This document shows, piece by piece, positions 30,279 to 54,842 of a stretch of 64,000 nt of DNA (position 1 is its first letter; each line of letters begins with the position of its first letter). The position numbers were made by a program, and so were the translations under genes. The notes beneath the pieces were generated by a model. It was given only the letters and a program-made list of their open reading frames with translations, was not told the DNA's origin and did not search any database. Location: assembly GCA_963707635.1 (NCBI GenBank), contig OY970173.1, positions 2,464,001 to 2,528,000 on the forward strand, in the 5' to 3' direction. This DNA comes from Candidatus Latescibacterota bacterium (GTDB lineage Bacteria > Krumholzibacteriota > Krumholzibacteriia > WVZY01 > JAKEHA01).

Positions 30279-30324
30279 CGCACCCTTCCTCATCCGGTTG
30301 TATACCCCGCCGGGGCCGCCGCGG

Positions 30325-30726: not shown

Positions 30727-30761
30727 GAGATCAAGTCCCGAACTGCTTCTCGATGCAAGAG

Positions 30762-31880: not shown

Positions 31881-31907
31881 CGTCGCTACCTCTCTCATCG
31901 CGGTTCC

Positions 31908-31936
31908 ACTATAGCTCGCCCCGCGCGCGCACACAA
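31908..31936 (-). promoter_or_regulatory. Internal sigma70-type promoter candidate
   Basis: TTGTGT-N17-TATAGT upstream of the TPR gene. Confidence 0.4.
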
Positions 31937-31959
31937 GCCGGCCCGGCACCCGCGCGTCT

Positions 31960-32962: not shown

Positions 32963-35900
32963 GCCGCGTCGTCGTCCTCGTCGCCGTCGTCGGCTTGCTC
33001 CTGCTCTGAACCGCCGCGATCGCGCAGCTGCTTGCCGTACTTCTCCCACCCGAGCGCGCGGAGCTTGTGGTCGCGGTCCACGTTTCGGTCTGTCACGGCC
33101 GAGTCGATGTCGAGATCGCCGGGCGTCGCCTCGTCGCCGCCGGCGTCGGCGAACTTGCCGCGGCCGAAGACCGGGGGCTCGTGGGGGGCCTCCGGCGGCG
33201 GACTCCCGTCGCGTGGCGTGCGGATGCTCGGGGCGCTATCCGCCGGTTTCCGGGTCGGCCGGACGGCCGGCGCGTCGGCTGGCCGGCCCGGCAGGGTCGC
33301 CGCACCCGGTCGCTCGCCCAGCACGTCGTCCAGCCCGTCCGCGTGCGTCTCGGGAGCTGCCGGGGCCACCGGCCTGGGCGGCCTGGGCGGCGGGCTGGCG
33401 GCAGGTTCCCCGGGACGCTGCTCGCGCACCGCCGCCACCGCCTCCGCGCGGGTGGCGAAGGCCGAAATGAAGGTCCGAAATTCGAGGCACGCGAACACGT
33501 CGGCCAGGTCGGTCCCCATGCCCGCCAGCGCCACCGCGCCGGTGGCCTCGAACGCGCGCGCGAACTGCCCCCACCCGCTGCTCGAGATGTACTCGACGCG
33601 CGTCAGGTCGAACACGATCGCGCGCGGAGCGCGCGCGAGCTCGCGCGAAAGCTCGTCGGACAAGAGCGACACCGCGGTGGTCTCCACCACGCCCGCGAGC
33701 GTGGCCACGCGCACTCCCTCGTCGCCGTCGCTCCATTCGAGGTCCATCCCCGGCGTGCTCGCGAACGAACGCCCGCGGGCCGTCTCCTCGGCGGCGGCCG
33801 CCGCCGGGGGCTCGTCCGCGATGGGCGCCGCCACGCGCCGGAAATCGTCGATCGCGTCGGCGAACATGTCGAAGGACGCGAGCACGATGTTGAACCCGAG
33901 CATGGTGAACACGTAGTACACGTCGGGGTCCATGCCGAAGAGTTTGATGTCCCCGCCCGCGCGGCGCACCTCGCGCAGGCGCTCGGTGAACACGCCCCAG
34001 CCGCCGCTCGACACGTACTCCACGAACGTCATGTCGACGACGACCCGGTTGCGCCCGCCCGCGAGCACCTGGTCCAGCGCGGCCCGGAGCCGCTCGGCGC
34101 TCACCGTGTCGATGATGCCCTTGAGCTGGAGCACCGCGATCTCTCCGCGTTCGCCGACGGTGGTGGCTTCGATGCGCAGGCTCTGCCATTCCATCGACGC
34201 CCCCGCCGGGGTCCCGCCCGTGTCGATGCCGTGCGACGACGCCATCGTATCGGCGCCCAGGTCGCGCCGGACCGGAGGCGCGCTGACGCGCCGTTGCTCG
34301 GGCGGGAGTGCCAGGTACGCGCGCGCTTCCGCGAGGCCGGGAAACGCACGCAGCACGTCGGCGAACCCGAGCAGCTCGTACACGTCGAACACCTCGGTGG
34401 TCATCCCGCACAGCACGATGTCGCCGCCGTGGTCGCGGAGCCCGCGCACTTCGCCGACGAACAGCCCCCACCCGCCGCTCGACACGTAGGATGTCTCGCC
34501 GAGGTCGACGACGATGCGCAGTGCGCCGGCCACGATCAGGTCATGCAGCTTGCGCTCGAGCGCGGACGAAGACGACGAATCCAGGTGCCCGGCCAGCCGC
34601 ATCTCTGTGATGCCGTCGGACGACGAAACCGCGATGCCCACGCCCTCGACCCGCTCGGTGATCTCGGCCGGGAGCGGCGCGCCGTCCGGCGCGGACGCGG
34701 GGATCGCCGGGGGCGCGACCCCCGGGATCTCGCGCAGGAGGTCGTCGACCAGGTCGCGGCGCGGCGCGGGTATCGGCTCCGCGCCCGGCACCTCGGGCGC
34801 CTCACGCCGCAGGCGGTTGCGGCGCAGGTAGTCGAGGCGGAGGTCTTTGGTATTCAAATTGAGCCGCTTGAGCTCCTCGTACACCATGCGCTCGGAAATG
34901 TGCTGCGACGGGTCACGGTCGCGGTTGTACTCCTCGGTGATGCGCTTGGCACCGAAATCGGGGTTGGCGGCGATGGTGCGGATGATCGCCTTGCGCGCCT
35001 CCAGGCTCACGCGCTTCAAGCTGACGTCGTCGCGCAGGATGTCGTTGCGCAGGCCCCGCTCGCCCATGGTTTCCAGCCGCTTCTTGTACCGGTAGAAGGT
35101 CGCCGGGGAGACCCGCATCTGCTGGCAGGCATCCTTCACACTCATGCCCTGCAACTCGACCATGTCGATCAGCTTCTTGCGAATGTCGAAGAGCACGTCG
35201 TCCGCCGTCATCTTCTCCTTCACCGCCACGACGGTGATGTCGTCGCTCTGCGGGTAATCCAGCGTGAAGCGCTTGATGTCCAGATCCAGCTTGGCGATGA
35301 ATTCCTCGGGCGAGAGGTAGCCGTGGGTCTTCACCATGTCCAGCAGGCGCTCTTCGCCGTACTGCTCGCGGCGCTCGTTCATGGCCTCGGTCACGCCGTC
35401 GGTGTAGATGACGAGCATGTCGTCCTTCTTGAGGCGGACCTTCTCGACGCTGATCGAGCGGCGGAACAGCGATTCGTCCGGCAGGCTGATGCCCACCGGG
35501 AAGCCGCGCGGGTTCAGGAAGAACGTCTCCCGGGTCTCGTGGCGGTAGAGAATCATCGGGTTGTGGCCCGCGCTCGCGTAGCTGATCACGCGGTTCTTGG
35601 AATCCAGAATGACGTAGAACATCGTGACGAACATGCCCTTCTTCATGTCGTCGGTCACGAAGGCGTTCATCTTCGACATCACGTCGCTGGCGTTGCGGTT
35701 GCCGCGGGCCTCCATGCGCAGCGCGGTCCGGATCATGGTCATGACCAGCGAACCCGGCACGCCCTTGCCGGACACGTCGGCGACCACCACCCCGATGGTG
35801 TCGTCGTCGACCTGCACGAAGTCGTAGTAGTCCCCGCCCACCTCGGCCGCGGCCTGGTAGAGCGGCGCGATGTCGTAGCCGCTGATCTGCGGGCGGCGCC

Positions 35901-37215
35901 GCGGGAGCAACGACTGCTGGATCTGCTTCGCGACCTCGATCTCCTTCTGCATCTTCTCCTGCTCGAGAATCGACGTCTGCGCCTTGCGGAACTTCTCGGT
36001 GATCTCGTTGAACACACCGGCGATGGCGCCGATTTCGGCCGGACCCCGGATGTCGAGCTTGCCCTCCAGGTTGCCGTCGCCGATCGCGCGCACGCCGTCG
36101 GTGAGCACCTGGATCGGCCGCACGAAGACCTGCACCAGCCCGATGACGAGCACGAGGCCGACTGCGAAAGTCGCCAGCAGGAGCAGCGACGTCTGCAGCC
36201 GCGTGTCCCGGATGGCGGCGCTCACGGCGTCCTCGTACACGCCGAGGTGGAGCCGCCCGATTTCGAACGAGCGTCCAGCCTCCCCCTCCACCGTCACCGC
36301 CACCGCGACGTCGCGGACGTCCTGATCGCCCTGGCGGTGGCGCGACCACGAGATCGCGCCGTCTTCGAGCAGCAGCTTGCCGGCCGGGGCCTGGTAGGGC
36401 TGGAACACTTCGTCGATCTGTCCGGACGCGCGAATATTGCCGGTCGCGTCAACCAGCCGCACGTAGGCCACCTCGTTCGAGCGCGCGACGAGCTTCGAAA
36501 GCTCCGCGGTCAAGTTCGTCTGCTCGATCGAGAACTCGCTCGGGTCGGTCAGCACGGGGAGGCTTCGACTCCCGAGGCTCTCCGCCAGCCGCCGTTTCTC
36601 GACCCACTGGTTCGCGCGCTGGGCCCCGATGTCGCGCGTCTGCCGGAGGAACACGAATCCCCACAGCACCGCCATCAGCAGGAACAGGCCCCCGCTGGCG
36701 CGCACCATGAACTTGAAGCGGAGCGTGCCGCGCAGCGGCATCTTCTCGGGGAGCACCGCGGCCGAGAACGCCGCCTGGCTGCGCTTGGTCAGGATGAGCT
36801 CGTTGCCCGCGTCGGTGGTGCGGTACTCGACCCCGTCCATCAGGCGGTTGATGAGGAATACGCCGAGCCCGCCCTTGCGCCCGGTCTCGACGTACTGGTC
36901 GAGGTCGGGGTCCTTGACGCTCGAGAAGTCGAAGTTCCGGCCCCGGTCCTTCAGGTGGATGCGCACGCGGCCGGAATCGATCTCGGCCACAACGGTGATA
37001 TCGCCGCCGGCCGTCTCGTACGCGTGCTTGATGATGTTGGTGCAGGCCTCGTCGACGGCGAGCTTGGTGTTCGAGACCTCGCGCGGGCTGAAGCCCGCGT
37101 CCTCGCACACCTCCACCACGAAGTCGCGAACCCGCCCCAGCTGCCCTTCCTCCGCCGCGACCGTGAGGTCGCGGACGTTGGGCTTCCGCTCCAGCATCGC
37201 CGCCGCGCGCGCCAT
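32959..37215 (-). CDS. Multidomain partner-switching protein: RsbW-like kinase, 2TM with periplasmic sensor, HAMP, SpoIIE/PP2C, tandem HTH, three STAS
   Basis: LAVDEACTNIIKHAY, DRG and GGLG (kinase); TMs near 36650-36710 and 36130-36200; VGGDYYD, ADVSGKG, YTDGVTEA and DDIT (PP2C); SVKDACQQMRVSPATFYRY (HTH); three Y(V/I)SSxGWG STAS motifs. Confidence 0.9.
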   Translation of the reverse strand: MARAAAMLERKPNVRDLTVAAEEGQLGRVRDFVVEVCEDAGFSPREVSNTKLAVDEACTNIIKHAYETAGGDITVVAEIDSGRVRIHLKDRGRNFDFSSVKDPDLDQYVETGRKGGLGVFLINRLMDGVEYRTTDAGNELILTKRSQAAFSAAVLPEKMPLRGTLRFKFMVRASGGLFLLMAVLWGFVFLRQTRDIGAQRANQWVEKRRLAESLGSRSLPVLTDPSEFSIEQTNLTAELSKLVARSNEVAYVRLVDATGNIRASGQIDEVFQPYQAPAGKLLLEDGAISWSRHRQGDQDVRDVAVAVTVEGEAGRSFEIGRLHLGVYEDAVSAAIRDTRLQTSLLLLATFAVGLVLVIGLVQVFVRPIQVLTDGVRAIGDGNLEGKLDIRGPAEIGAIAGVFNEITEKFRKAQTSILEQEKMQKEIEVAKQIQQSLLPRRRPQISGYDIAPLYQAAAEVGGDYYDFVQVDDDTIGVVVADVSGKGVPGSLVMTMIRTALRMEARGNRNASDVMSKMNAFVTDDMKKGMFVTMFYVILDSKNRVISYASAGHNPMILYRHETRETFFLNPRGFPVGISLPDESLFRRSISVEKVRLKKDDMLVIYTDGVTEAMNERREQYGEERLLDMVKTHGYLSPEEFIAKLDLDIKRFTLDYPQSDDITVVAVKEKMTADDVLFDIRKKLIDMVELQGMSVKDACQQMRVSPATFYRYKKRLETMGERGLRNDILRDDVSLKRVSLEARKAIIRTIAANPDFGAKRITEEYNRDRDPSQHISERMVYEELKRLNLNTKDLRLDYLRRNRLRREAPEVPGAEPIPAPRRDLVDDLLREIPGVAPPAIPASAPDGAPLPAEITERVEGVGIAVSSSDGITEMRLAGHLDSSSSSALERKLHDLIVAGALRIVVDLGETSYVSSGGWGLFVGEVRGLRDHGGDIVLCGMTTEVFDVYELLGFADVLRAFPGLAEARAYLALPPEQRRVSAPPVRRDLGADTMASSHGIDTGGTPAGASMEWQSLRIEATTVGERGEIAVLQLKGIIDTVSAERLRAALDQVLAGGRNRVVVDMTFVEYVSSGGWGVFTERLREVRRAGGDIKLFGMDPDVYYVFTMLGFNIVLASFDMFADAIDDFRRVAAPIADEPPAAAAAEETARGRSFASTPGMDLEWSDGDEGVRVATLAGVVETTAVSLLSDELSRELARAPRAIVFDLTRVEYISSSGWGQFARAFEATGAVALAGMGTDLADVFACLEFRTFISAFATRAEAVAAVREQRPGEPAASPPPRPPRPVAPAAPETHADGLDDVLGERPGAATLPGRPADAPAVRPTRKPADSAPSIRTPRDGSPPPEAPHEPPVFGRGKFADAGGDEATPGDLDIDSAVTDRNVDRDHKLRALGWEKYGKQLRDRGGSEQEQADDGDEDDDAA

Positions 37216-37217
37216 GG

Positions 37218-39101
37218 CTAGCGCTGCCCCTCGACCTTGCGCACGCGCTCGCGCGCCTCCTCGATGGACCGCTGGACGCTTTCGTTGGTGGGATCGATCT
37301 CGAGGATCTTCTCCCATTCCGCGATCGCCTGCGCGTACTGGTCCCTGGAGAAGAACTGCATGCCGGCCAGGTAGAGCTCGCGCACCCGCGACTTCTCGGC
37401 GTCGGTGAGCGGCGTGGTGCGCCGCTTGGTCAACGCCATGAGTTTCTTGGCGTCGGCGTGGTCGGGCTGCAGAGTCAGGAGCTCGCGCAGGTCGGTCATG
37501 GCGCCCTGGTAGTTGCCAGCGTTGTACTTGGTGAGCGCGTCGTTATACAGCGTGACGATGCGGAGCTTGCGCTGCGAGGCCGCGTAGTCCTGGCTAACCG
37601 ACTCGATCTGCTTGCGGATGCGCGCGATCGACGTGCGGGCATTCGCGTTGTCCGGTTCGTATTGCTGCACGTTGTTCCACTCCGCGATCGCCTCGGTCAG
37701 GCGGCCGTCGCGTTCTAGCTGCTGCGCGCGTTCGGAGTGCGCACGGATCCGCTCGTTGATCTTCGCATTGGTTTGATCCAGGTAGTCGTGGGCGCCCACG
37801 TTGAGCGAATCGATCGCGAGGATCGCGTGCCACTCGGTGCGCGCGCCGATCATGTCGCCCTCGTTGAACAGGTCGAGCCCGCGGGCGAAGCGCGTGCGAA
37901 TCACGGCCTGGTTCCCCAGGTCCCGCACCGCCGCCGCCTGCTGGGCCAGCACCTGCTCGCGCGCCGCGTCGCGGGCCGCGGCCGCCTCCGCGTCGTCGGG
38001 CACGAATTCGAGGACGATCAGCCACTGGTTGAGGGCTCCGGCCCAGTCGTCGCTCGCCTCGAGCGCGCGCGCCTTCTCGCGGTGGGCGTTGATTCGCGTC
38101 TCGAAGGTGCGCTGGATGAGCAGCCGCTCGTCCTCGGCGCGCTGCGCCTCGATCGCCTCGCGCTTCTCGTCGAGGGTCTGGCCGAAGCGGCCGGTGAAGG
38201 TCACGGCCTGGTTCGAACCGCTCTCGTCACGCGAGTAGAATGCATAATCCACGCCGTAGTTGAACGCCCCCACGCCGAGCCCGAACGTGGGCGTGTCGTC
38301 GTCGAATCCGACCCGCAGCGCGACCAGCCGCGAGAACACGTACTCGGCGCCGGCGTGGAAGCGCCCGTCGGCACGCTCCGGGAGATCGTACTGCAGCATG
38401 AGCCGGAGCGCGGACCCGTTGTCGAACCTGCGCGTGTACCCGGCGCCGGCCAGGATGGTTCGATCAACCGTGTCGTCCTCGAGGTCGAGCTTGTACTGGG
38501 CGCCCACGATGTCCTGCAGGTTCACTCCCAGGGAAAGCGATCGCGCCCCGTCGGGTATGTAGCGGAAGCCGATGTCGACGCCGGGCGCCGTGCTGCTGAA
38601 CGGATCCACCTGCTGGCGGCTGATCTTGAAGGTCGCCCCCGCGGCCAGATTCCCGAACATCCACCCGAAATGGCGCTCGGCCGCGTAGGAGATGAGGAAC
38701 TGGCTCTCGCTGGCGTTACCTTCGCCGAGCGGGCGGCTGAACTCGTCGTACAGATCAAAGGTGGTGCCGACGTTCATGTAGCCCACGCCGAATGCGCCCG
38801 CCGAGAGGGTCGGGTAGACGAAGCCGAAGTAGGTATAGCCCGCCCCGGTGAACTCCCCGTAGAGCGGCATGTACATCGCCATGAACTGCATCGACTGCAC
38901 GTTGCGCAACGACGCCGGGTTCCAGTACACCGAGCTGGCGTCGTCGGCGAGGCTCACGAATGCCCCGCCGAGACCGATCCCACGCGACCCGGCGCCCAGC
39001 TTGAACGTGCTCGCGGTGCCGCCGTCCTGCGCGAAGGTGGGCGTCGTCAGCGCGACGAGCGCGGCGAGCAGCGCAACGATCACAACGCTCTGGTTTCTCA
39101 C
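37218..39101 (-). CDS. PorV-like beta-barrel fused to a C-terminal TPR/coiled region
   Basis: GTG start overlapping the upstream stop; signal peptide; GAGSRGIGLGGAFVSLADDASSVYWNPASL; FHAGAEY...LRVG...DYAF; TPRs (AIAEWEKILEIDPTN). Confidence 0.82.
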   Translation of the reverse strand: MRNQSVVIVALLAALVALTTPTFAQDGGTASTFKLGAGSRGIGLGGAFVSLADDASSVYWNPASLRNVQSMQFMAMYMPLYGEFTGAGYTYFGFVYPTLSAGAFGVGYMNVGTTFDLYDEFSRPLGEGNASESQFLISYAAERHFGWMFGNLAAGATFKISRQQVDPFSSTAPGVDIGFRYIPDGARSLSLGVNLQDIVGAQYKLDLEDDTVDRTILAGAGYTRRFDNGSALRLMLQYDLPERADGRFHAGAEYVFSRLVALRVGFDDDTPTFGLGVGAFNYGVDYAFYSRDESGSNQAVTFTGRFGQTLDEKREAIEAQRAEDERLLIQRTFETRINAHREKARALEASDDWAGALNQWLIVLEFVPDDAEAAAARDAAREQVLAQQAAAVRDLGNQAVIRTRFARGLDLFNEGDMIGARTEWHAILAIDSLNVGAHDYLDQTNAKINERIRAHSERAQQLERDGRLTEAIAEWNNVQQYEPDNANARTSIARIRKQIESVSQDYAASQRKLRIVTLYNDALTKYNAGNYQGAMTDLRELLTLQPDHADAKKLMALTKRRTTPLTDAEKSRVRELYLAGMQFFSRDQYAQAIAEWEKILEIDPTNESVQRSIEEARERVRKVEGQR

Positions 39102-42100
39102 TTCGCCACCGCGATTCGGAACTTGGCCGACTTCGAGCCCGCGTTCAGCACGCACACGTAGACGCCGTTGCGCACGACTTCGCCCTGACCGTTGCGGCCG
39201 TCCCAGGTCGTCTCCTGCGGCCCGGCCTGGGCGCGCGCGTCGCCCGAGGGAATCGTCTCTTCGTACACCAGGTCCCCGGTCAGCGCATAGATCTTGAGCG
39301 AGACGTCCGCCGGAGCGTCGAGGAAGTACGCGATTCGCGTCGCCTGCGATCCGGCGCGGAACGGATTCGGATAATTGTGCGTGTACTCCTGGAAGTTCCC
39401 GCTCAACACCACCAGCGATTGCGAGGTGACCTGCCCGTCGAGCGGCTGTCCCTGCGCATCGGTCACCCCGAGCGGGAGCGTCGAGGCCGGGTCTCGAACC
39501 ACCAGGCCACCCGATCGCACTCCCACACGAATCTCCGTCTCGCGCGGCTGCGCGTCCAGATCCAGCGCCACCACCGCGTTGACCGACGCGTTGGGCGCGA
39601 TCGTGCGATCCGCGCCCCCACCCAGGAGCGAGACCACGATCGGGTTGGTGGCGGGACTGGTGACCACGTAGGGCTGCGCACCGCCGAGGTCGATCTGGAG
39701 CCGCGCGAGCGTCGCCCCCACCGAAGCGGCCGAGAGCGGCTGGCCGTTCTTGCCGATCACGGTGATCGCAATGGTGTCGATCTGGGCATCGTTCACGCTG
39801 GGGTCGCTCGCGTTGTACGCGATCTCGACGCCCAGGAGGGTCACGTCGGCCGCGCCCGCGGGCACCACGCCGGTATTGATCCCGAGACTCTGCGACACGT
39901 TGCGCACCGCCACCGCGGCGCCTTCGGTCACCATGGCGATATTCGCGGTCCCGTTCGCCACCTGGGCGGGAAGACCGCTGTTTTCGTCGGCGGGGACGGC
40001 GGAGATCGTCACCGCGATCTGGTCGGGCCCGGACGGCTGCAGCGCGGCGTTGACATCCCACGCCACCGGTGTGCCCACCACGAACGGCTTCGCGACGGTT
40101 TCTCCACCCGCGAGCGTGTACCCGGGCGGGAGGCCGATCGAGAGCTGCCCGCCGGCCGCCACGCCCGCCGCGCCGGCTGCATTGGTCACGTTCGCCGTGA
40201 CCGTGAACGGAACCCCCACGCCGACCGCGTTGTCCGTGGCCTCCGGTGGCGCGGTCACACTCGCCGCCACCGAGAGCGAGGCGCGCGGCACCGTCGTGAC
40301 GGCGACCGTGTCCGCGACGGAAGGCACCGGGTTCTGCGAGTTCTCGTCGATACCCGCGAAGGTCACGACCGCGTCCGCCGCGCTCGCCGGCAGGCCGGGC
40401 GCAATCACGCTATACGTCACCGACAACACGCCGCCAGTTCCGTCGCCAAGGTCCCGCACCGGCCCCCCACTCGTCACGATATACCCCGCGGGCAGTGCCA
40501 GCGTGGCGGTAACGTTGTCCGTCGTCGAGGTCGCGGTCACTGCCGCCCGCAACGAGAAGGTCTGGCCCACGCTCACCGTGTCGTCCACCGCACCCGCCGG
40601 ACTGGTCGCCGACAGGCTCGGAGCCGAGAGCGCGCCGCCCGTCGCCACCGTGATCGACACCTGGTCGTCCGGCTGCGACGAGAATGCCGGCGCCGCCAGA
40701 TTGACGTCGTCAGGCGTGGTCGTGAGCGTGCATGTGAAAGCGACGGCCGCCTGCGGCGCCGCCGGCGCGGTCACCGTCCAGTCGATCGCAACGCCCGCGC
40801 TAAACGCCTGCACGGGCGATTCCAGCACCGAGAACCCGGACGGGCTCGTCAGCTTCACGTCAGCCGCACCGGCGAGGCTCGCCTGACCCGCGTTCGTCAC
40901 CAGGCCCGTCACCGTGAAGGTCTGATTCGGGCTCACCACCCCGCCTACGGCGGAGCTGGTCAGCGACAACACCAGGTCGGCGCGTCGCTGCGTCACCACC
41001 AGGTAGGTGTTGTCGACCGGGGGCTGCGGAATCACCGGCTGCCCGGAGTTGTGCGACACCACCCCGGATAGGATCGAGGAAGTGAACGTCTCGAGCGCCG
41101 CGGGCGCCGCCGGTGCGGTCACGCGGAACACGAAGGTGTGGCTCTCGTCCACGGCGATCGACTGGCGGCGCAGGCTCGCGGGCGCGACGCTCGACGCGCC
41201 GTCCTTGGCCAGCGACACCCGCACACTGTCCACGTCCTCGCCGCTGTTCTGGACGGTCACGTGGATCTCGTACGCGAAGCCGGTATTGACCGTGTCGCGA
41301 TTGGCGGTCGCGTGGTTGAAGGTCCCGAAGCCGGTAGTCGCGAGAATCGCGAGGCCGGCGACCTCCTGCACGCGCACGGTGGTGGCCCCGGCGTCGGAGA
41401 GTGCGATCGTCGGGTCGTTGCGGTCGTTGCCGCGCGCCCCCAGTGCGATGTCGACCAGCCCGGTGTCGCTCCCGGTCACGATCACGCTGTATACGAGCGA
41501 GTCCACCGCGCCTCCCGGCAGGCGCCAGGCCGGCGCGCCCGAGCCGAACGCCGTCGGCGGCTGAACCACGTAGTCGATCTTCGTGGCTCCCGCGATGGAG
41601 AAGGCGACGTCGGCCGCGACCGGCGGCGTCAGGTCCGCGCTCGCCTGTCCCGTATTCCGGAGCGCCACGACGATGTTCCACGGGTTCGACTGTCCCTGGG
41701 TCACGGACGCCTGCGACGGCCGCACGCTGGTGATGTCGAGCACCGCCGGCGACTGGATCGCGACGGGTGCAGTCGCATCGAGGGGAGGATTGTTCAGCGC
41801 CACGAGGTTGCTCTGCGCCGAGTTCTCGTCAACGGCGGATACGAGCGTGGTCGTGAAGGTCTCCAGCGTCGACGACGTCGCCGACGCCGTCACCGGCCAG
41901 GCGTACGCCACGGTCTGCCCGGCGGCGACCTCCGCGATCGGAGACACCGGCTGTATCGTGCTGAGCCCATCCGTCGCCATGCCGACCACGACGTCGCGCG
42001 CGTCCGCCTGACCGGTGTTCTGCACCTGCAGGATCACGTCGAAGGCCTGGCTTTCGTTCACGGCGACCGGATTCGGGGCCGCGACGGTCGTGGTGGTGAT

Positions 42101-45100
42101 GCGCAGCTGCGCCAGCGTCTCCACCACGATCTGACCGTAACCCGTCGACGCAACCGTCGTCGCCGAGCCCGCCGTCTGCGAATTCGCCTCGATCCAGGGC
42201 ACGGTCGCGTCGATACGACGCGTGCCGGCCGTAGTCCCGGTGGTGTCGACTATAAAGAGCAGGCTGTCGACCGACCCGCCCTCGAGCACGGTACCTCCGC
42301 CCAGCAGCGCGGACGAGGCCACGAACGCCCATCCCGCCGGCGGGCCCGCAAAGGCGATCCCGGCGCTCGCCGCGGCGACATCGACGTCCGCGCCCCCGGT
42401 GTTCGCGAGCACGACCCGCACCGACCAGTCGGCTACCTGGCCCGCGGTCACGTCCGGTCGCGACGTGTGCGTCGCGACCACCGCCACCGCCGCCGGCGAC
42501 TGCACAACGACGCTCCCGCGCCCGCCGTCGAAGGTATTGTCGTTCACGATCGTGAGATGGTTCAGGTCGCGCCCTTCGACGCGCCCGCTGATCACGATGT
42601 TGCCGGTCCTCGTCCCGGTCTGGGTCACGAGAAACTCGATGGTGCCGGTCTCGAGGGAGTCCAGAATGTCGCTGGCGCCGCCTCTCATCACGGGCGGGCT
42701 GACCGTGTACGTGAGATCCGGCTGCGCGTCCGGCGCGATGAACGTGAGGAACGTCTCCGCCGGCGAAAGGTCGAGGTCGATGGGAGCGGCGCCGGTATTC
42801 ACGACCGTCATGGTCGCGGTCCAGTCCGCGGTCTGTCCGGCGGTGACGCTCGGCTGCGACACGACGATCTGCTGGATCGACAGCTGCGGCGGCACCTGAA
42901 CGGTGACACCGTTGGGCACGACTTCCGACTCGGTCATGTCGATCTCATTGGCGTTGTAGCCGAAGTCCACGTTGAAGGCGTAGGGGCCGAGCGGAATCCC
43001 CGATTCAACGACCTTGGGCTCGAACAGGAGTCTGACCGTCTCGCCGCCGCGAATCGAATCGGGGCTGCCGAGAGCCAGGAACGCGCTGAATTGGTTGGCC
43101 GCAAAATGGACGCGCGTCAGGCCGTGGTCGAGCACCGCCGTTGCCGCGTTGGGGTTCGCGTTCGCCACGTCGACCTCGAAGGGGACGACCGAGCCGCTCG
43201 TGACCCCGGACGGGTCTATGTCGACGACGGTCAGGTTCGGCGACGCCTGCACACGGATCGAGCCCGCGCCCGGCGACGACAGCACGCGGGTGCTGTTCGT
43301 CTCCACTGCCGACACGGAAATGTTGAGCGCCTTCACGCCGTAACTCGAAAACGTCCCGGTGTTGTTGGCGTGCGCGATCAATGTGCCCGAGCTGCCCCCC
43401 GCGAGAATGAGTCCACCCTCCTCCAGATCCGTCGGCTTTACGAACACCGTGGGGCCGCCATCGTCCTGGATGCCGATCGTGAACCCGGCTGGCAGCGTGA
43501 GGCGCGCGTCCGATTGTCCGGAGTTGTGCACCGCGACGGTCACGTCCCAACCGAACGCCGTGCCCGCGGTCACGGTGCTCTGCGACGGCGTGACCGAGTC
43601 GACGACGATGTCCGCCGGGGTCTGGAGCGTGATCGAGCCCGTCCCGCCGCTGCCCGTGTCGTCGATGACGATGGTCCCGGTATTGATCTCGCTGCCGGTC
43701 ACGGTCCCGCCGATGGTCGCCACGCCGGCGCCGCCCCCCGTCGTCGTGACCAGGAAGCGCAGCGTGTCGGTCTCTCCGCCGGTGAGCGTCGCGCCCGACG
43801 GCATGGTGGCGGGGTTGACCGCCCAGCCCGTCGTGCCCGGGAACGTGAGGAACGAGTTCGCCTGAAGCAGCGACACACCGACCGCCGCACCGCCGGTGTT
43901 GCGCACCGCCATCTTCACCGCGTACGACTTCGCCGTCTGTCCCACCGTCGCCGTGGTCTGCGCGGTGGTGATGCTCTCGATGCTCAGCGCACCCGGAAGC
44001 TGGAGGGCAAAGCTGCCGGTGCCGCCATCGCTGGTGTCGTCGGTGAGAATGTCGCTCGAATTGAGATCGGTGCCGCGCACGAACCCGTTGACGATGATCG
44101 TCCCGACGGTATTCCCGGCCCCCTGCATACTAAAGACGAGCGAGTCGATGGCGCCGCCGTTGAGTATGGTGTTGCCCGCGTCCTCGAGTGCGGTCGGCGA
44201 CACGATCGTGTACTCCGAAGTGACGGGGGCGCCCGTGCCCAGCACGTTCAGCCCGAGTTTCGTCACCGCCGGGTCGAGGTCGAGGTCGACCGCCGCCCCA
44301 CCCGTGTTCTGCACCACCATCGTCACCGTCCAGGGCACGGCCTGCCCCTGCGTCACCGTCGCGCGGCTCGATCGCACGCCCACGATACTCAAGCTGGGCG
44401 CGTTCTCAACCGTGATCGCGCCCCCAATCGGGATGGTGCGCGTGCCGGTGACGCCGTTTTGCGTCCAGTGCAACTCGAGCACCGCGTCGGCCTGACCTCC
44501 CGTCAGAATCCCAGCCCCCACCACGGCGCCCGTGAAGAGCAGCGTAACCTGCGCGTCGGCGGCCACGTCCACCGGGCTCGTCTGGGTCAGCCCCACGTTG
44601 AACTGGTTCGAACCGAAGCGCAGGCGCGACGTCGTGCGGTCGAGGGTCAGCGTCGCCCCGCTGGGCGTCACCGGGTTGCTCACGGTCACCGCGAAGGCGA
44701 CGGACGTCCCCTTCGACACGCTCCCCGGCGCCAGCGACACGTAGGCGGCATCCGGCGCCTGCTGGACGGTCACGCTGCCCGTGTCGAAATCGTTTCGCGC
44801 CACCCCCGAGTTGAGCTCGGTGCCGTCGACGTCGATAGTGATTGTTTTCGACCCGAACGAGCTGTATGCGCCCGCGGTGGTGAGCGGGATCAGGAGCTGA
44901 TCGGTTTCGCCCCCGGAGAGCAGCGTGCCGCCACCGACGAGCGAGGCCGGCACAATGTACGCGGGCGGGGTAGTCGCATTCTGGAAGACGACGCTGACCG
45001 CCGCCCCGAGATCCAGGTCGACATCCGACTGGCCGGTGTTGGTGAGTGTCGCGACGACCGCCCACGGCACACTGGTCCCGCTCGTGATCGTCGTCCGCGA

Positions 45101-48100
45101 CGGCGTGATACCCGACACGGCGATCAAGCCCTGCGACTGCACGAGCACGCTTCCCAGCCCCGAAGACGAGACGGACAGCGCGCGCGCACTGTTGCTCTCC
45201 ACACCCGCGGTGGCCACGTCGACCATGGTCGGCCCGGTCACGCTGCCCGACTGCGTCACGTCGAACACCATCGTGTCCACTTCGCCTCCGGAGAGCACCG
45301 TCCCGCCGCCCACGAGCGCGGGCCGCACAGTGGATACCCAGCCGGCCGCCGGCGAGAACACGAGCCGCGACGTGGGTCCGGCGAGCGTGAGCACGACGTC
45401 GCTCCCGCCGGTGTTACGCACCGCGGCGCGCACCTGGAACGTCTTGCTCATCCCCTGCGTCACCTTCGGCTGCGACGGAATCACGGCGTTGAACGTGACC
45501 GCCGCCGGAGACTGGACCAGCAGGTTGCCCTTGCCGCCGAGGTTGGTGTCGGCGAACAGCGGCTGGCTGGTGTTGACGTCCTCGACCTCGAGCGCGCCCT
45601 CGATGGTCATGTTCCCGACCGTGGTCGCGTTGCCGGTGTTGTCCGAGACGTTGAACACCACCGTGTCGACGTCGCTGCCGGTGAGCAGCGTCCCTCCGGA
45701 AAAGGCCGCCGGGGTGGAGACCACGAATTGATTGGTACGGTCGACGCCGGCGTGGATGAAGCGCAGCGTCGCGGCCGTGAAGGTGACGTTCGCCCCGCCG
45801 TTGTTGGCCACCACCATGCGCACCTTGATGGGCTTGCCCTGGTCCTGGGTGAACAGCGGCTGCGACGGGATCATGGAGAGGATGGCGATGTTCGGCGCGT
45901 CCTGGACCAGCACGTTGTCCGCGACTGTGATCAGCTGGCCGAAGGGGAGGCCGTTTTCGAAGCCATTCAACTGGACCTGCGGGACATATGACGCGCTCGC
46001 GATGGATCCGCTGACGGACGTGCCCAGGAATTGCAGCGTGGTGGTACCGGGCGGCAGCGACGTCGGACCCGACGGGTTGAGCGCCGCGGTGAAGGCGCCG
46101 GCGGCGAACCGGATCGTGGTCGTCGCCGGGGAGAGGTTCACGGTGGCAAGGCCGGTGTTCACGAGCTGGACGGTGAACGCGACCGTCGCGGTCTTGCTCA
46201 CCTGGTCCGGGTCCAGCGCGTCGCCGGCCGCCGACGCCACACTCGCCGGCGTCACGACCGACACCGGGCTGCCGGTGAGCAATACGGGCGGCCAGGTGGA
46301 TGGCGCGCCGTTCTCGGTGCCGTGGGCGTCGAGCGTCACCGGATACGAACCGGGCGTGAACGTCCCCGGCACCGCCCGCGGCCGGAACGTCATGGTCTGC
46401 ATCGCGTTCCCGCCGGCGATCGCGTAGTTCTGCGTGGGCGACGCGCTGAACGTGCGCACGCCATCGGTGAAGGTAAGGCGCGTCGTCGTGGAATCCAGGA
46501 ACGCGAGCCCGCCGCCGGTGTTCCGTATCGTCGCCTGGAATGCGTAGATCTTGCCGCGAGAGGCGACCACCGGCGTCAACGTGGACGGCTCATAGGCCAG
46601 GATGGCCGCGGCCACGACTTCAACGGTCGCGCGCGGGTAAGGCGCCACCGCCAGGTCGACCACGGACTGTCCCCCCACGGTGCCGGTCGCAGCAGCATCG
46701 ATGCTGTAGAAACCCAGCGTCGCTCCGGTCTGTACGGTCACCGGGACGTTGAACACGCCGGATGCGCCCGGGCCGAGCGCGAGCCCCAGCTCGGGAGCAT
46801 TGCCGACGATGAACAGACCGGCGGGAATGAAGGTCAAGTCGATGTCGTTGATGGTCGTGCTCTGGGCCCCGTCGTTCTTGACCGTGACGGCGATGCTCGT
46901 CCCATAGCCCCGGCTCACCTGCCCCGACGCCGGCACGATGCCAGTGATTTCGATGTTGGTGACGAGCAGCGAGAGCGCGGGGAGGCTGCAGGCCACGTTG
47001 ACGGGCGCGGTATTCGCGTCCGCGCCGATGAGCGTCGCCGTCGGCGCGTACTGGGCGGTCAGGAAGGCCGGGTCGATGGCGGCCGACGCGAAGGCGAGGA
47101 TCGCGTTGCCGCTGCCCGGCACCAGCTGCTGCGCGGCCAGATTGGCCGAGTAGCTGTGGGTCCCGTCCGTGAACGAAAACGTGGTCGCGGTCGTCAGGTT
47201 GACCGACGTCGGCGACGAGTTATTGACCACCACGCTGAACGCGACCGAACTCCCCGGCACCACGATGGCCGGTGTGGGCGGGGTGTTGCACACCAGCACG
47301 GGCGGCGGCGCGAACGTGATATCGATGGTCCCGCTCGCCGTCCCGGTGGCGCTGGTCATCGTCACCGTCGACACGCCCACCGTGGTGGACGAACGCAGGT
47401 CGAACGTGATGGTGCCATTCGCCGCGATCGTCTTCGGGCTTCCACCCACGATGAAGCCGCCGAGGTTGGCCGACACGTTCACCGACAGCCCCGCCGTTAC
47501 CTGGTTGGCAAACGCGTCTCGAATGACGCCGCTGGTGATGGTCGTGGTCGAGGTGCCGTTGGCCGTGATCGTGGTGCGGGTCGCGGTCGCCGTGATTGCC
47601 CCGGCGGGTGCGGCGGGAACGACCGTCACCGCTTCACCCAGCCCCGTCACCGAGGGGTTGCCGACGGTGGCGGCGCGCACCTGGTAGGTCTGCACCTGGG
47701 TCGCGGTGACGGTCGTGACCGCGACGCCGTTGGACAGAGTCAGCGGGTTGGTGCCGAACACCAGACCGACGCCGGGATCCCCGGAGAGTGCGACCTGCGT
47801 CGCGTCGTCGTCGACGGGGTTGTTGTTGATGTCGTATGCCGTGATGGTGGCGTTCTTCGAAACCCCCGCCGTCGTCGACGACGCATTCATGACGACGGTG
47901 TAGTAGGCGATTCCGCCCGCGACCGTGGTGACGTTGAAGGTCACGCGCTCGCGTGCGGCCGGGGTGCCGTCCAGAATCGTCGCGGCCACCGTGCTAGGCC
48001 CCGCGGTGGTGGACGTGTGCAGACGCGCGACCGCGCGGCCGTTGGCCGCCGACGCGGCGATACCATCCGTCGAGTCGCCCACCGAATCGCGCAGGAACCC

Positions 48101-51100
48101 GCTCGGCGCCGGCGACGACTGGACGAGATACCTCACCGCCTGGCCCGCGACCGGGTTGCCCCACTGGTCGCGCACTTCCGTGCGCAGCGGTTGAGTCACC
48201 CCCACCGGTATCGACGGTGGGCTCGATCCGGCCACGTAGACCACGCGATACGCGGGGCCGTTGGTGACGGTCACTGTCGGGCTGATCCCGGTGGGACCGC
48301 CGCCCTGCGTCTGCGCCCCGACGGTGAACGTCTCCGCGACGGTGTCGCGCACGGTGGTCACGAACTGACCGGCGGCGAGCGTGCCCGAGACCGCGCCCAG
48401 GGTGGCATTCCCGGTGTGCAACACGTCGATAACGGTCGAGTTGTCCTGTGTCCGGTAGTTGTTGTTGGCGTCGCGCGCCTTGATGGTCACCGAGGTCACC
48501 TGGTTGGCGACGAGCGCCGTCGACCCGGTCGTTATCTCGTAGCTCGCGATCGGACCCGCGACCGTACTCACCGTGAAGTTCACCGTCTCCAGGGCCGGCG
48601 GCGCCCCGTCGAGAATGGTCGCGCGCACCAGGTTGGTCCCCGATCACGGTCCCGGTGGTCAGCGTCGTCGACACGTCTCCGGCCGCGTTGGTCGTCCCCG
48701 ACGGCGGTGCCGGCGACCCGCCGCCCTGGGTGACCGCGAACGACACCAGCTGGCCGACGACCGGATTGCCGAACGGATCGAGCACGCGCGCCGTCAAGAG
48801 CCGCGTCGCCCCCGCCACGATCCCGCTCCCATCGCCCGCCACGTTGGTCACGCGGTAGGCGGCGGCGGGTTTGATCTTTACAATGTTGGAGTAGCCTTCG
48901 AAGCTGCCGGCGTCCCGCGCCCGCACGCGCATCAGCTCGGCCACGGTGTACGATTCGTTGACCACCACCGCGCCCGCCACCAGCGTCGCCTGCGTGACCG
49001 ACAGCGGATTCCCGGTGGGGGTCGTCGTGACGTCGTCGACCGCGGTGAGCGTCACCGAGTTGCCCGCCGACGTCACCTTGTTGTTGAAGGCGTCGCGCGC
49101 CTCGATCGAGACGTTGAACGCCGCGCCCGCGATCGCGCTGTCGGCGGCGATCACCGCATAGCTCGCCACCACGCCGGTGTGGGTGACGGTCACGACTCGC
49201 TAGGTCGCCGGTGAGCCCCGCGGCTGCCGCCGCGATATCCCAGCCCCCAGCCGTCGGTCCGCGGCCGTAGACCGTCCGCGAGCCGCCGATCAGGTTGAAC
49301 GTGGTCGTGCCGACGCCGAAGTCGGTGAGGCTGAAGACCAGCGAGCTGCCCGCCTCCGGCGTCAGCGTCACCAGGCTGGTGTTGCCCGTGTCGAGGTTGT
49401 CGCTGCCGTCCAGCGCCTCCACCTTGAACGAAAACGGACTGCCCCGCCGGCGCCGTGCTGGCCGACAGGAACGTGATCTTCAGGTGGGTCGCGCCGCTCG
49501 AGACGGTGTTCACCGCGAACGTCACGCGTTCGCGCGCGAGCGGCGAGCCGTCGAGAATCTGCGCGTTCACCTGGTTCGTCCCCGCGGTCAGCGCGGTGTG
49601 GTAGGTCACGAGCCCGCGCCCGGAGCCGTTGGTGACGACGATGCCGTCGTTGGGATCGCCGTCGGTGTCGGTGAACGACGGTGTGCCGTCCGGCGCCGAC
49701 GCCACGGAGAAGGTGGCGAGCGCGCCGGGGACCGGGTTGCCGTAGAGGTCGCGGACCTCCACCTCCAGCGGGCGCGTCGTCCCCGCGGTGACCCCGCTTC
49801 CGTCGCCGCTGATCTTCACCACGCGGTAGGTGCCCGCGTTGGAAACCGAGACGACCGCGCTGGTGCCGCTCGGCGGTCCCCCGCCCGACTTCTCGGCGGT
49901 GATGGTGAACGTCTGCACGACCGTGTCCCGCACGGTGGTGGCGAACACGCCGTTGGTCAGCACCCCGGTCGCGGCCCCGAACTGCGCGCTGCCGGTCGAC
50001 GAGAGCGTGACCGACGTCGTATTGTCCAGCGTGACGACGTTGTTGCCCGCGTCGTAGGCGGTGATCGTGAGCGGCACCGTCTCGCCCGCGAGCAGCGAGG
50101 TCTGCTGCGGCACCACCGTGAAGTAGGCGATGCCGCCGGCCACGGTCTGTCACGCTGAACTCGACCAGCTCGTCGCTGGGAGGAACGCCGTCGAGGATGG
50201 TCGCGCGCACGCGGTTGTCGCCGGCGACGAGACCGGTGGTGAGCGTGGTGGCGGCGGTCCCGCTCCCGTTGCGTGGCGATCGACGCCGGCAGCACCGACC
50301 CGCCACCCTGGAACGCGACGAATGACACCTGCTCCCCCGCGACCGGGTTGTCGTAGGCGTCGAGCACCTGCGCGGTGAGCACGCGGGTCGCGCCGGCCGC
50401 GACGCCGATGGCGTCGCCGGACACCTTGGCGATGCGCTTGGCGGCCGCGGCGGAAACCGTGACGATGCCGCTCGTCCCTTCCTTGCTCCCCGCGTCGCTG
50501 ACCTTGACGCGGATCGCTTCGGCCTTGGTGTACGACTCACCGACCGTCGCCTGACCGCCAGCCAGGGTCGCACCGGTAACGAGCAGCGTCGACTGGGCGG
50601 GCCCGGGATTGATGTCGTCGATCGCGGCCAGCGTGATCCCGTTCGACGCTCCCACCACCCGGTTGTTGTACTCGTCGCGCGCTTCGATCGAGACGTTGAA
50701 GGTCGCCCCGGCCACGACACTCGCGACGGTAGACACGGCGTAGTCGTCGACGAGGCCGGTGTCGGTGACGATCAAGGGTTCGGTATCCGCGCCCAGTCCG
50801 CCGCCGCTGGTGGTGACATCCCAGTTCCCCGCCAGCGTGCCGAGCGTGTAGACCGTGCGCGCGCCGGAGGCGAGTGTGACCTGGGTGACGGTCGCGCCGA
50901 AATCGGTGAGGCTGAATTGCAGCCCGCTGCCCGCTTCCGGGGTCAGCGTGACGATGGCCGCGTTGCCGGTGTCGACGTTGCCGGTGCCGTCGACGGCCTC
51001 GACCAGAAACTGTACGCTCTGCCCCGCGGGCCGGGTCGAGGGTCCGACGAAGGTGATGCGCAGATTGGTGGCGCCGCTCGCGGTGGTGGTGTAGGTCACG

Positions 51101-53668
51101 TCGCCGACCGACACTTGCGCCACGTTGGCAGTGAACGCGTCGAGCACGTCCGCCAGACGCCGCGCCGGGCGGCGCCTGATAGCGCACCGTGATGCGGCCG
51201 TGGCGTCGGAGTTCCCGCAGCGCGCGGTGGGTTGAGGTGGTGGTCGGGTTGCGGGTCGACCGGGTCTCGGATACCAGCGACCCGTCGGCCGCGTTCTTGA
51301 TGAAAATGTCGACGCGCTCGCCGCTCTTGACGTTGCCGAACGCGTCGGTGAGCGTCGCCGTCACCACTTCGAACGAACTCACCGTGACGCTCTTGCTGCC
51401 CGGCGTGATCACGAGGTTGGCGCCCGGGCCTGCCGTGCCCGTGGCCGTGAAGTCGACGCTGGGCGTGCTTCCGCTCGCGATCAGCGCGCGCAGGCGGTTG
51501 AGCCCCACGATCGTGCCCAGGCGCCAGACATCGCAGTCGATGGTTCCGTCGGCGATGGTGACGCCGGTGCTGTCGACGCCGCCTCCGGCGACCACATCCA
51601 CGGTGCCTCCGCCACCGACGGCGCGAAACGTGACGGTGGCGCCGGAGACGAGGTTATCGAAGGCGTCGCGCACGCGCACCTTCGGCAACACCGCGACCGG
51701 CGTGTTGACCGCCGCCGACTGTCCTGCGCCGGCGACGAGTTCCACCTTGTCCGCGCCGCCGCTGGACACGGTGATGACTTGCGACTGGCCGCTGGCGGCG
51801 CCCTGCACCGCGTTCAACTGAAACAACTCGGCGCGCGTATCGGTGACGCGAAGCGGCGCGACACCGTTGTCACCGGGAGCGAACGTATACGTCGCGTCGT
51901 CGCCTGAGAGATTGACGAGTGTTCCCTGCGCGAGCGGTGCCGCCCACTCGACCACACCATTGCCCACGCCGCCGCTCGTCGTCGAGAGATTCACGGTGCC
52001 GGTGTAGCTGGTGACGACGTGGCCCTGTGCGTCGAGCGCGGTGAGCGTGACCGGCTTGATGGTCCCCGCGATTGCGTTCCCGTCGGGCATCGACCACTGG
52101 AAGCTCGCGATCCCGCCCGCGGTGAAGTTCACCACCGCGGAGTCGGTTACCGCGGTGGCGCCGATCACCGCCTTGACGGTGCGCGTGCCGACGATGGTGG
52201 TCGCCAGGGTTCCTGTCGCCTGACCGCTCCCGTTGGTGACCCCGCCCGGCTGGGTCAGCGTGGCGCCGGCGGCCGGGATGGCGGAGAGCGTCACCGACTG
52301 GCCGGAGACCGGGTTGTTGTTCGCGTCCCGGGCCGTGACCGTGATGGTGCTGGTGGAGGTGCCGTTCGCCGTCACCGGGGTGGTTGCCGCGACCAGGCTC
52401 GCGCCCCCGCTCACCGGTCCCGGCTGGAACGTGACCTGCGCCGTCGGCGTGAGCGCCTGTCCGTTGATGGTCGCCGAGACCGTCACCAGCTGCGCCGTCG
52501 TGTTCGTCACCGACCCGATCGCGCGCCCGTCGGCGCCGGTGGCGCTGCCCGGGTCGGCCTTGTTGGCGTTGCCGGTCACCGCCAGCACGACCGTGTCGCC
52601 CGCCCGCGGGTTGGCAAACGCGTCTCTCGAGGTCACGGTGACGGTGCTCTGGCTGGTGCCGTTGGCGATGACCGGGCCGGTCGCGGAAATGGTCGACACC
52701 GTCGTGCTCAACGGGCCGGGTAGCACGGAGACGGTGGCCACACCGCCGAGCACCGGCGATCCGGAGGTGGTGAGCATGGTGAGCGAATGAGGTGTCCCGG
52801 TCGTCGCGAGTGTCGCCCGGTAGTCGACGCGCACCGAACTCTGCCCGGTGGAGATCACGATGCTCGTAATCGGCGTCGAGTGATTCCCGGGCGAGTAGTA
52901 CGAGCCGTGGGTCGAAAACAAGCCGATGGTGCGATTCGCCGGCACCGCGGTGCGGTTGCCGAAGGCGTCGCGCACGACGATCCGGTACGCGGCGAAGTCG
53001 CCCGCGGTCATGGTGGTGTCGCCGGGAGCCGGATCCAGCGACGACGGGGCGCCCGCGACGACCGTCAGCTGCGGTGAGGTCGCGATGGAGACCGGGGACG
53101 CGCCCGCCGGGTCGGACGCCACCAGAAAGACGTGCACGCCGGTCGCCGTCGCGGCACTCGCCCGCGCGACGGCGCCGCCGGCGTCGTCGCCGTAAATGAG
53201 CGTGAGTGTGTTGCCGGCCGTCAACGTATCGACGTCAATCGTGACGACCTGGCCCCCCACCGTGAGCAGCGGGTTGCCCGTGGGCTCGTTGGTGCCAATG
53301 CTAACGAACGCCTCGGAGGTGGAAGACGAGGTCTGGGGCGCGCTCCATCCGGAGGGAATCGTCACGCGCACGGTGCCGTCGGTGATCGTCTCGGCCGCCG
53401 TGTAGACGATGGTCCACTTTCCGGCCGCACCTGCGGGAACCGATGCCGGCGGCGATATCGTCGCCGTCCCGCTGCCGGGGCCGGCCAGCGCAGGAACAGC
53501 GGCCGCGACCCACGCCATCGAGAGCCCCGCCGCGAGTCCCCGAGAGCACGCGCGGGTGGCGCTGCGACGGGGTCCCCGCCGCGCGGAGCCGGCGGGGTGG
53601 CGCGGCGACAGGACCCGCGCTAGCGGCGACAGGCCCCGCGAAGCTGCTGCGAAAACAGGCATGCTCAT
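39098..53668 (-). CDS. Giant (~4,800 aa) Ig-repeat surface protein with C-terminal FlgD-Ig/T9SS-like domain; split by at least 6 apparent indels
   Basis: Continuous T/V/G/S-rich beta protein across ORFs 50537..53773, 49957..51147, 49368..50720, 49190..50143, 48580..49422, 47994..49193 and 39098..48628. Invasin Big_1-like DxxxNP motifs; CTD HNYPNPF...IYALTGDLV...WDGRNGQGEVVRNGVY. Confidence 0.85.
47930..51100 (-). repeat. Approximately 1.58-kb (about 525 aa) diverged tandem duplication within the giant gene
   Basis: TNLRITF...PAGQS...VEAVDG (near 51060) recurs as THLKITF...PAGQS...VEALDG (near 49490). RATILDG occurs near 50200 and 48620; ILDG..ARERVTF near 49550 and 47970. Confidence 0.75.
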
Positions 53669-54831: not shown

Positions 54832-54842
54832 CGCCTTCGCTT

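Follow-up and report, generated by a model that had tools for sequence, protein, structure and literature searches.

A giant immunoglobulin-repeat protein of a Krumholzibacteriota bacterium, split by frameshifts, and its conserved neighbours: a PorV-family barrel with a tetratricopeptide-repeat tail and a membrane sensor

We analyzed a 64,000-nt stretch of DNA (the window; positions 2,464,001 to 2,528,000 of contig OY970173.1, assembly GCA_963707635.1) from Candidatus Latescibacterota bacterium, which GTDB places in the Krumholzibacteriota. On its minus strand, seven coding segments between 39098 and 53668 almost certainly form a single gene. Its predicted product of ~4,856 amino acids (aa) and 483 kDa, hereafter the giant, comprises about 40 immunoglobulin-like (Ig-like) domains by our own count and ends in a type 9 secretion system (T9SS) kind of C-terminal domain (CTD). 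The next gene encodes a PorV-family barrel fused to a tetratricopeptide-repeat (TPR) tail, and the one after it a membrane sensor with a predicted periplasmic Cache domain and a HAMP domain. We read this trio as a T9SS-exported Ig stalk anchored on its barrel, the state of which would likely be signalled inward through the TPR arm to the Cache-HAMP sensor, and give this reading as a whole a probability of about one half. That the giant is barrel-anchored, T9SS-type cargo is probable in its own right; the signalling link from stalk and barrel to sensor is only slightly favored.

The initial annotation had joined seven open reading frames (ORFs) into one ~14.6-kb gene, and this joining, down to its coordinates, is borne out by codon usage, by intact orthologues and by alignment to one of them. 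The six-frame list holds a 3,181-aa unbroken frame (39098-48643, minus strand) and shorter overlapping frames up to 53785. A Viterbi path through a genome-trained codon model followed one coding path on the minus strand from ~53450 to 39100, with six +1 shifts at ~51157, 50271, 50150, 49438, 49197 and 48635 and no stop before 39100. Frameshift-aware alignment to the intact orthologue L016 gave the same six shifts and a compensating indel pair at ~51262/51200. The gene so read extends from an ATG at 53668 to the stop codon at 39100-39098; its true start is uncertain, the n-region being ~40 aa long and one orthologue alignment pointing to a possible further indel near 53534. Two plus-strand ORFs lying over the giant, 41138-45991 and 46031-48733, failed the codon-score filter and were taken as antisense shadows. 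Intact orthologues, which the initial annotation had proposed as a check, were found when 61 genomes were searched with the last 1,000 aa of the giant: unbroken frames of 4,902 (L016), 4,864 (L017) and 4,311 aa (L020) in the same genus, and of 4,540, 5,918 and 4,386 aa in other families, all six with a signal-like N-terminus.

By far the best reading of the breaks is that they are very likely assembly errors. With an X at each break, the read-through of the giant is 58.6% identical to L016 over 4,862 columns and collinear across every break. All eight indels fall inside 18% of the gene; under even spreading, P would be ~4e-5 for the eight and 8e-4 for the six shifts. The identity to L016 is 62% before this patch, 63% inside and 66% after it, and the GC content at third codon positions (GC3) stays at 0.90-0.97 along the gene. 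A rough genome-wide scan, which caught four of the giant's six shifts, returned 70 frameshift candidates, 63 of them with a one-extra-base offset, and the giant's patch was the densest 3-kb cluster. The Sua5/YrdC gene of the window (19909-20527, minus strand) is also split, by a frameshift at ~20150 between profile positions 108 and 113. This similar split, in an essential gene, is an independent sign of assembly indels and makes it very likely that the breaks of the giant are errors as well. In addition, two contigs of ~90% relatives are without one base at 49435 and 50150. Weighing on the other side, these contigs have a depth below 5, one reaches just 20 letters on one side, six sites are uncovered, and no same-organism read was found across any break: one soil run matched 150-180-nt pieces exactly, none of them spanning. 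No RNA data set with the sequence was listed, the best DNA set shared 0.11 of its words, and an alignment of four runs at 80% similarity was swamped by unrelated high-GC sequence.

The lack of such reads, together with the presence of broken copies in three relatives, speaks for real breaks, in which case the locus would be a recent pseudogene, a phase-variable gene or several separate genes. We regard this as highly improbable, because the read-through is free of in-frame stops, neither identity nor GC3 drops, the indels are clustered and lie outside long simple repeats, the breaks interrupt domains, the later segments have by inspection no signal peptide of their own, the relatives are broken at positions other than those of the giant, and the Sua5/YrdC gene is broken in the same manner. 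Programmed frameshifting and phase variation were rejected, as the sites carry no long simple repeats and relatives break elsewhere or not at all.

The features of the giant and of the two genes behind it are as follows:

53483..53668, minus strand: signal-peptide-like N-terminus, by inspection; start uncertain, possible extra indel near 53534
52680..53482, minus strand: two conserved N-terminal domains of no named family; predicted distal tip
47579..52681, minus strand: seven Big_1/Invasin_D3-like domains (own profile) alternating with two other repeat types of ~95-115 aa (6 + 2 copies)
49489..51069, minus strand: internal duplication, copy 1, 527 aa, 51% identical to copy 2
47905..49486, minus strand: internal duplication, copy 2, 51% identical to copy 1
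48635..51262, minus strand: patch to which all ~8 indels are confined, six net +1 shifts plus a compensating pair; likely an error of assembly
41066..47356, minus strand: 16-17 tandem second-type modules of ~125 aa, in ~500-aa super-repeats of four; predicted Ig-like beta-sandwiches
40004..41068, minus strand: three related modules of ~120 aa; three copies in most orthologues
39401..39916, minus strand: penultimate beta-sandwich of ~170 aa
39101..39400, minus strand: FlgD_ig-type T9SS CTD ending in FRIAVAK, PorZ/PorU-like
37218..39101, minus strand: PorV-family barrel fused to a TPR tail of ~310 aa (PorV_fam 91.8 bits, cut-off 90)
32959..37215, minus strand: membrane sensor fusion of ~1,420 aa, starting 2 nt after the barrel stop

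The sorting-type CTD named in the initial annotation is supported at the levels of both sequence and predicted fold. The C-terminus of the giant matches FlgD_ig in Pfam (30.8 bits, cut-off 27), and a model built on an alignment of 43 of 44 hits (pLDDT 88) resembles the PorZ CTD (5m11; Z 10.5, root-mean-square deviation (rmsd) 2.5, 88 aligned residues, 32% identity) and the mirolase CTD (Z 10.0, rmsd 1.9, 77 aligned); the NucA and PorU CTDs also match. At the other end, a hydrophobic segment is followed by an ALA|G site, so that the features of a Sec signal peptide are present: the segment ends ...VAAAVPALA|GPGSG, and the ordinary signal-like N-termini of the orthologues end, as judged by eye, at the same GPGSG or PGSG. 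The signal-like N-terminus of the initial annotation is thereby retained.

The genome, a single contig of 3.2 Mb that is 96% complete, encodes SprA, PorV and PorU above cut-off (TIGR04189, NF033709 and NF033707). The PorU gene adjoins a PorV gene, and PorV-family matches occur at nine places, seven of them above cut-off. An iterated profile returned 118 CTD-like tails, including a few spurious ones. Most share a common RKMVLLK-type ending, from which the tail of the giant differs. Six of the 118 directly precede a PorV-family gene; all six are atypical tails, the giant's among them. GldM, GldN and GldL were not found by profile and GldK was seen under cut-off only, in a search in which five other genomes used as controls were silent too and no genome was positive; judging by these profiles, the T9SS here possibly has a divergent or absent GldLM motor. 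The nearest named records are metagenome-assembled genomes, 59-63% identical over the C-terminal region and labelled Candidatus Krumholzibacteriia, Latescibacteria/Latescibacterota or uncultured bacterium. A second cargo-barrel pair lies elsewhere in this genome (L154 4501-11947; G000:C1:234500-241946, minus strand), where the protein whose CTD comes closest to that of the giant, 1,020 aa long, is followed by a PorV-family barrel with a C-terminal FlgD-like domain and then by a 1,029-aa, apparently TPR-rich protein.

The GTG of the barrel gene overlaps the TGA of the giant by 4 nt. No OmpA-like peptidoglycan-binding domain was detected by Pfam in the TPR tail. The sensor consists, in order, of an RsbW-like kinase, a transmembrane segment, an sCache_3_2-like periplasmic domain, a second transmembrane segment, HAMP, SpoIIE/PP2C, a helix-turn-helix and three STAS domains. 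Its PP2C, HATPase_c_2 kinase and STAS domains match Pfam above cut-off, and in 37 of 42 orthologues the periplasmic domain was recognized as sCache_3_2-like (E up to 0.05). The motifs DVSGKG, TDG, SDD, DEACTN and three copies of YxSSxG, which we take to be those of the PP2C, the kinase and the STAS serines, are intact. The HAMP-PP2C part resembles SiaA (NF038263, 68 bits, far below cut-off). Among the scanned neighbours there was no sigma factor or diguanylate cyclase, and no genome-wide search for a cognate effector was made.

The order of cargo, barrel and sensor is widely conserved, in counts that are not independent, given that related genomes were compared and that the sets share some loci. 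Of 53 loci found through the C-terminus of the giant, 45 carry the barrel directly after the CTD; SpoIIE appears in 38 of these, and the remaining seven end before it. The eight loci without a barrel are all titled Spirochaetota. The CTD subtype of the trio loci is itself strongly conserved (mean column identity 65%), and giant cargo ranges from ~2,900 to 5,900 aa across relatives. When loci were chosen by the barrel instead, a barrel-TPR search of 141 genomes of the phylum was positive in 67, at 79 places, 40 of which were fetched with preference for new ones with contig room. In all 40, SpoIIE lies on the barrel's strand, 2.5-3.2 kb downstream, and in 37 a CTD-ending ORF lies directly upstream (longer than 2,500 aa in 27); the three exceptions are a contig end, an inverted neighbour (L128) and G027. 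Across the 141 genomes the barrel-TPR occurs in 67 and the sensor in 65, with a nearly identical pattern over families.

Two families, with 0 of 57 and 0 of 10 genomes positive, are without this version of barrel-TPR and sensor at the thresholds used. All of 20 large-CTD loci sampled from these families show the order large CTD protein, barrel-TPR, HAMP sensor. The outputs of these paralogous sensors differ, with PP2C in 14 and HD_5 in six (L135, L140, L141, L145, L147 and L149); Cache was detected in many of the 20 loci, and sCache_3_2 specifically in five of the six HD_5 sensors. In distant loci, other cargo repeats (DUF11, or CBM96 with Big_2) stand ahead of the same barrel and a sensor, and the sCache_3_2-HAMP-SpoIIE arrangement was confirmed by Pfam in two of them. 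Since cargo and output are thus swapped around a constant core of barrel-TPR and Cache-HAMP, these results suggest that the core acts as a relay.

The text available to us from PMC12618676 and PMC9143113 describes T9SS cargo whose cognate barrel is encoded directly downstream as depending on that barrel and able to be anchored by it, and the corresponding part of PMC10947112 reports that the CTDs of PorU and PorZ stay uncleaved. From these two observations we infer that the giant, after Sec export, is translocated by SprA and retained by the barrel: its uncleaved CTD would hold it there, as in the analogous pairs PorZ-PorQ and SprB-SprF, and its N-terminus would form the distal tip. At 4-5 nm per Ig-like domain, a stalk of 40 domains would reach ~150-200 nm. 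The TPR tail of the barrel would lie in the periplasm, facing and contacting the Cache domain, and a contact or load state of the stalk would pass via this arm to the Cache-HAMP sensor. HAMP would then control the PP2C, which together with the fused RsbW-like kinase would set STAS phosphorylation by partner switching. More broadly, and tentatively, the system may be a T9SS-based trans-envelope receptor, in which a swappable Ig stalk on a PorV-TPR barrel drives a Cache-HAMP sensor with interchangeable outputs. Its output would be either partner switching by PP2C, kinase and STAS or an HD domain resembling those of cyclic di-GMP phosphodiesterases. We hold this wider reading to be slightly less likely than not.

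We modelled the barrel-TPR, the CTD and the Cache domain as a three-chain complex. The Cache domain scored an ipSAE of 0.35, compared to 0.00 for the best of three controls; the runs agree in at least 97% of contacts, and the partner pLDDT is at least 77. Of 157 solved pairs, 116 attained the ipSAE mark, as did 2 of 215 mismatched ones; just 18 of the 157 solved pairs, and both mismatches, did so at 0.60 or under. The model gives weak support to a contact between barrel-TPR and sensor.

Several observations weigh against the reading of the trio as a stalk that signals inward. The complex score lies in a range that is more often wrong than right unless the contact is likely beforehand, and it gives no interface. 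Cache domains usually bind small molecules, and the one here may sense something unrelated to the stalk. Gene order is evidence of linkage, not of the direction or physical route of signalling, and the linkage itself has breaches: in G027 the giant lies far from barrel and sensor, in L128 the barrel and the large CTD gene have opposite orientations, and in eight Spirochaetota-titled loci with a similar CTD (L081-L083, L085, L088, L090, L092 and L093) no barrel was detected behind it. Finally, the CTD of the giant falls under the type A cut-off (TIGR04183, 19.3 bits versus 23).

In another account, the giant serves as no more than a barrel-anchored adhesin or tether. The TPR tail would tie the barrel to the envelope in the way that PorE ties PorP, while the sensor would answer a small molecule and merely regulate the operon or the adhesin, inside-out or by co-regulation in the manner of SiaABC. 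Known trios of cognate cargo, barrel and PorE are static anchors according to the available portions of PMC12618676 and PMC9143113, the HAMP-PP2C part of the fusion recalls SiaA (with the sub-cut-off NF038263 score given above), SiaABC controls biofilm formation as stated in the part of PMC7647112 at hand, and the support from the complex model is weak. Set against this account, loci that differ in cargo repeats and in cytoplasmic output keep the same Cache-HAMP input behind the barrel-TPR, which suggests that a partnership in the periplasm, and not one regulatory output, has been under selection, and the TPR tail has no detected OmpA-like peptidoglycan-binding domain. We consider a plain tether unlikely, though by no means negligible.

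It is improbable that the sensor is instead a secretion monitor, its Cache domain binding the cargo CTD or the unoccupied barrel in the periplasm and reporting export status. There is a precedent in Porphyromonas gingivalis, where the PorA CTD activates the inner-membrane sensor PorY (as given in the accessible text of PMC12152298), and the strong conservation of the CTD subtype would be in keeping with it, but such a monitor leaves unexplained the conserved TPR tail of ~310 aa found in every examined locus. We give slightly less credit still to a surface coat or substrate-capture scaffold, S-layer-like or serving alpha-glucan uptake with the upstream CBM48 genes: these genes lie directly upstream here and in many relatives, Ig sandwiches also build S-layers (7ptp and 8s80 are among the fold matches) and the penultimate domain resembles a sialidase N-terminal domain, yet the one-to-one dedicated barrel and the length of ~2,900-5,900 aa suit a stalk better than a lattice, no carbohydrate-binding module (CBM) or enzyme family was found in the giant, and between it and the CBM48 genes there is a gap of 355 bp. 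An S-layer-like identity of the giant is not favoured. Its adhesin or surface-filament identity, the other proposal of the initial annotation, fits the stalk reading that we prefer.

The modular anatomy was resolved with repeat profiles iterated on 14 orthologous frames. In the N-terminal third, Big_1 and Invasin_D3 are recognized by Pfam (Big_1 at 92.4 bits in the first segment and 125.7 bits in L016), in agreement with the invasin Big_1-like domains of the initial annotation, and its duplicated block was found as the 527-aa pair listed above. In the 5,918-aa orthologue (L024, G025:C9), the extra length is a near-exact duplication of ~1,080 aa in the N-terminal repeat region. For the two N-terminal domains there was no PDB sequence match better than E 0.14, and the Atlas held unnamed clusters only. 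Among structures, the penultimate domain is matched best by a microbial sialidase, in its N-terminal domain (6mnj; Z 10.1, rmsd 2.8, 125 aligned). Pfam detected no enzyme, catalytic, toxin or CBM family in the pieces of the giant or in L016, as expected from the initial annotation, which had recognized no catalytic or toxin motif, and no NCBIfam model matched the body of the giant.

The initial annotation had also described roughly ten or more modules of a second type, possibly an unnamed Ig-like family. The modules are present in higher number, 16 being matched by our own profile and one further by a sister profile; the profile matched nothing in 20 shuffles and the reversed protein, nor any other frame of the genome. 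A model of three modules, built on an alignment of 59 of 74 hits (pLDDT 97, pTM 0.85), folds as three all-beta sandwiches. In structure it is closest to generic Ig-like domains (9fyo; Z 10.8, rmsd 2.2, 102 aligned); FdeC (4e9l; Z 9.9, rmsd 9.0, 282 aligned) and the repeats of an ice-binding adhesin (5irb; Z 9.9, rmsd 4.6, 288 aligned) also match, and the CARDB structure 3idu (Z 8.0, rmsd 3.4, 101 aligned) ranks below several other Ig folds. Most copies have no Pfam family, and no PDB sequence match was better than E 0.06. Pfam CARDB reached 28.6 bits in one 1,000-aa piece as a sum, where no individual stretch passed, and was found neither in the adjoining piece nor in L016, and the Atlas clusters CARDB, DUF11 and DUF7507 are a weak lead (CARDB 0.94, low recognition). 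Foldseek, the check suggested at the outset alongside per-module models, returned generic Ig chains at low TM-scores for multi-domain models, and these hits were not used to assign function. On these matches and models, the second repeat appears to be an unnamed family near CARDB and DUF11, within the known Ig-like fold and not a new one.

Behind the sensor follows a co-oriented group of genes:

29901..32956, minus strand: orphan ParA/MinD-like ATPase, small ORF, TPR protein and two stand-alone STAS proteins

Its TPR gene is syntenic in many relatives, and the group possibly serves positioning or downstream signalling. Upstream of the giant lies another cluster, at 54023-60364 (minus strand). 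In it, a second, divergent PorV-like gene (58359-59219) directly follows the gene of a CTD-ending protein (59246-60364); a 491-aa protein without annotation and three CBM48 proteins, of which one has ~660 aa and two are small, belong to it as well. Many relatives keep this cluster next to the giant, and its role may be alpha-glucan binding. A lamin-tail-domain protein with a weak FlgD_ig CTD (25736-27430, minus strand) is syntenic with the giant's gene cluster in close relatives. One of the Spirochaetota-titled genomes mentioned above gave a weak SprA match only.

Giant Ig-repeat surface proteins are a known kind and frameshifts are ordinary, so the value of this locus lies in its gene context: the overlapping PorV-TPR barrel and the membrane sensor downstream, which were absent from the initial annotation, are its most informative part. 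Known T9SS cargo-barrel pairs are anchors or gliding adhesins in Bacteroidota. Were our reading true, a pair fixed to an inner-membrane sensor, with swappable cargo and output, would be a new outside-in signalling route across two membranes, and would allow surface or cell contact to be sensed more than 100 nm from the membrane in uncultured Krumholzibacteriota and in lineages labelled Eisenbacteria, Bacteroidota and Omnitrophota. We found no paper on this gene or on a trio of cargo, PorV-TPR and Cache sensor in a literature search outside which most subscription journals and supplements lay; PMC11495043 and PMC12419801 yielded nothing on either. SprA/PorU/PorV-type secretion with more than 100 CTD-like proteins in a 3.2-Mb genome extends to a phylum beyond the range of a 2016 survey, the available text of which places T9SS in Bacteroidetes only (PMC4793230). 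Long-read indels conceal giant genes such as this one from annotation.

Compared with known fibrillar adhesins, the giant shares tandem Big_1 domains and a long Ig stalk with invasin and FdeC stalks and with the Marinomonas ice-binding adhesin. Unlike the invasin/intimin inverse autotransporters, it has no N-terminal beta-barrel translocator that Pfam detects in its pieces or in L016, and it differs from all of these adhesins in having no autotransporter barrel or RTX match, a C-terminal, T9SS-type anchoring and an unnamed tip domain. Among T9SS proteins, its FlgD-like CTD best matches PorZ and PorU, and its partner barrel is of the PorV/PorQ family, as in the PorZ-PorQ and PorU-PorV pairs of P. 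gingivalis. In contrast to those T9SS components, the giant is a non-enzymatic repeat cargo of ~4,850 aa, the barrel carries a fused TPR tail and a membrane sensor comes next.

The SprB-SprF and PG1035-PorP-PorE systems resemble the trio in combining a large adhesin-like cargo, its own barrel directly downstream and a TPR-containing periplasmic partner, as far as the available text of PMC12618676 and PMC9143113 describes them; PorE contains a TPR domain according to the part of PMC12773672 at hand. The differences are that the giant and its barrel show no type B CTD or PorP/SprF family match (Pfam and NCBIfam, E up to 0.01), the barrel being PorV_fam, and that the profiles used turned up no gliding motor genes; moreover, barrel and TPR form one fused protein here, and in third place stands the gene of a Cache-HAMP-PP2C/kinase/STAS sensor instead of a peptidoglycan-binding lipoprotein. 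Placed by these comparisons, the giant appears to be a further fibrillar Ig-repeat surface protein, one that falls outside strict type A cargo, the type B/SprF group and the invasins. The sensor, for its part, resembles RsbU/RsbV/RsbW and the Pseudomonas SiaABC system, as the accessible portion of PMC7647112 presents the latter, in its PP2C behind HAMP, its RsbW-like kinase and its STAS domains with a conserved serine; it differs in that kinase, phosphatase and three STAS domains are combined in one membrane polypeptide, which is tied to a barrel and a giant cargo.

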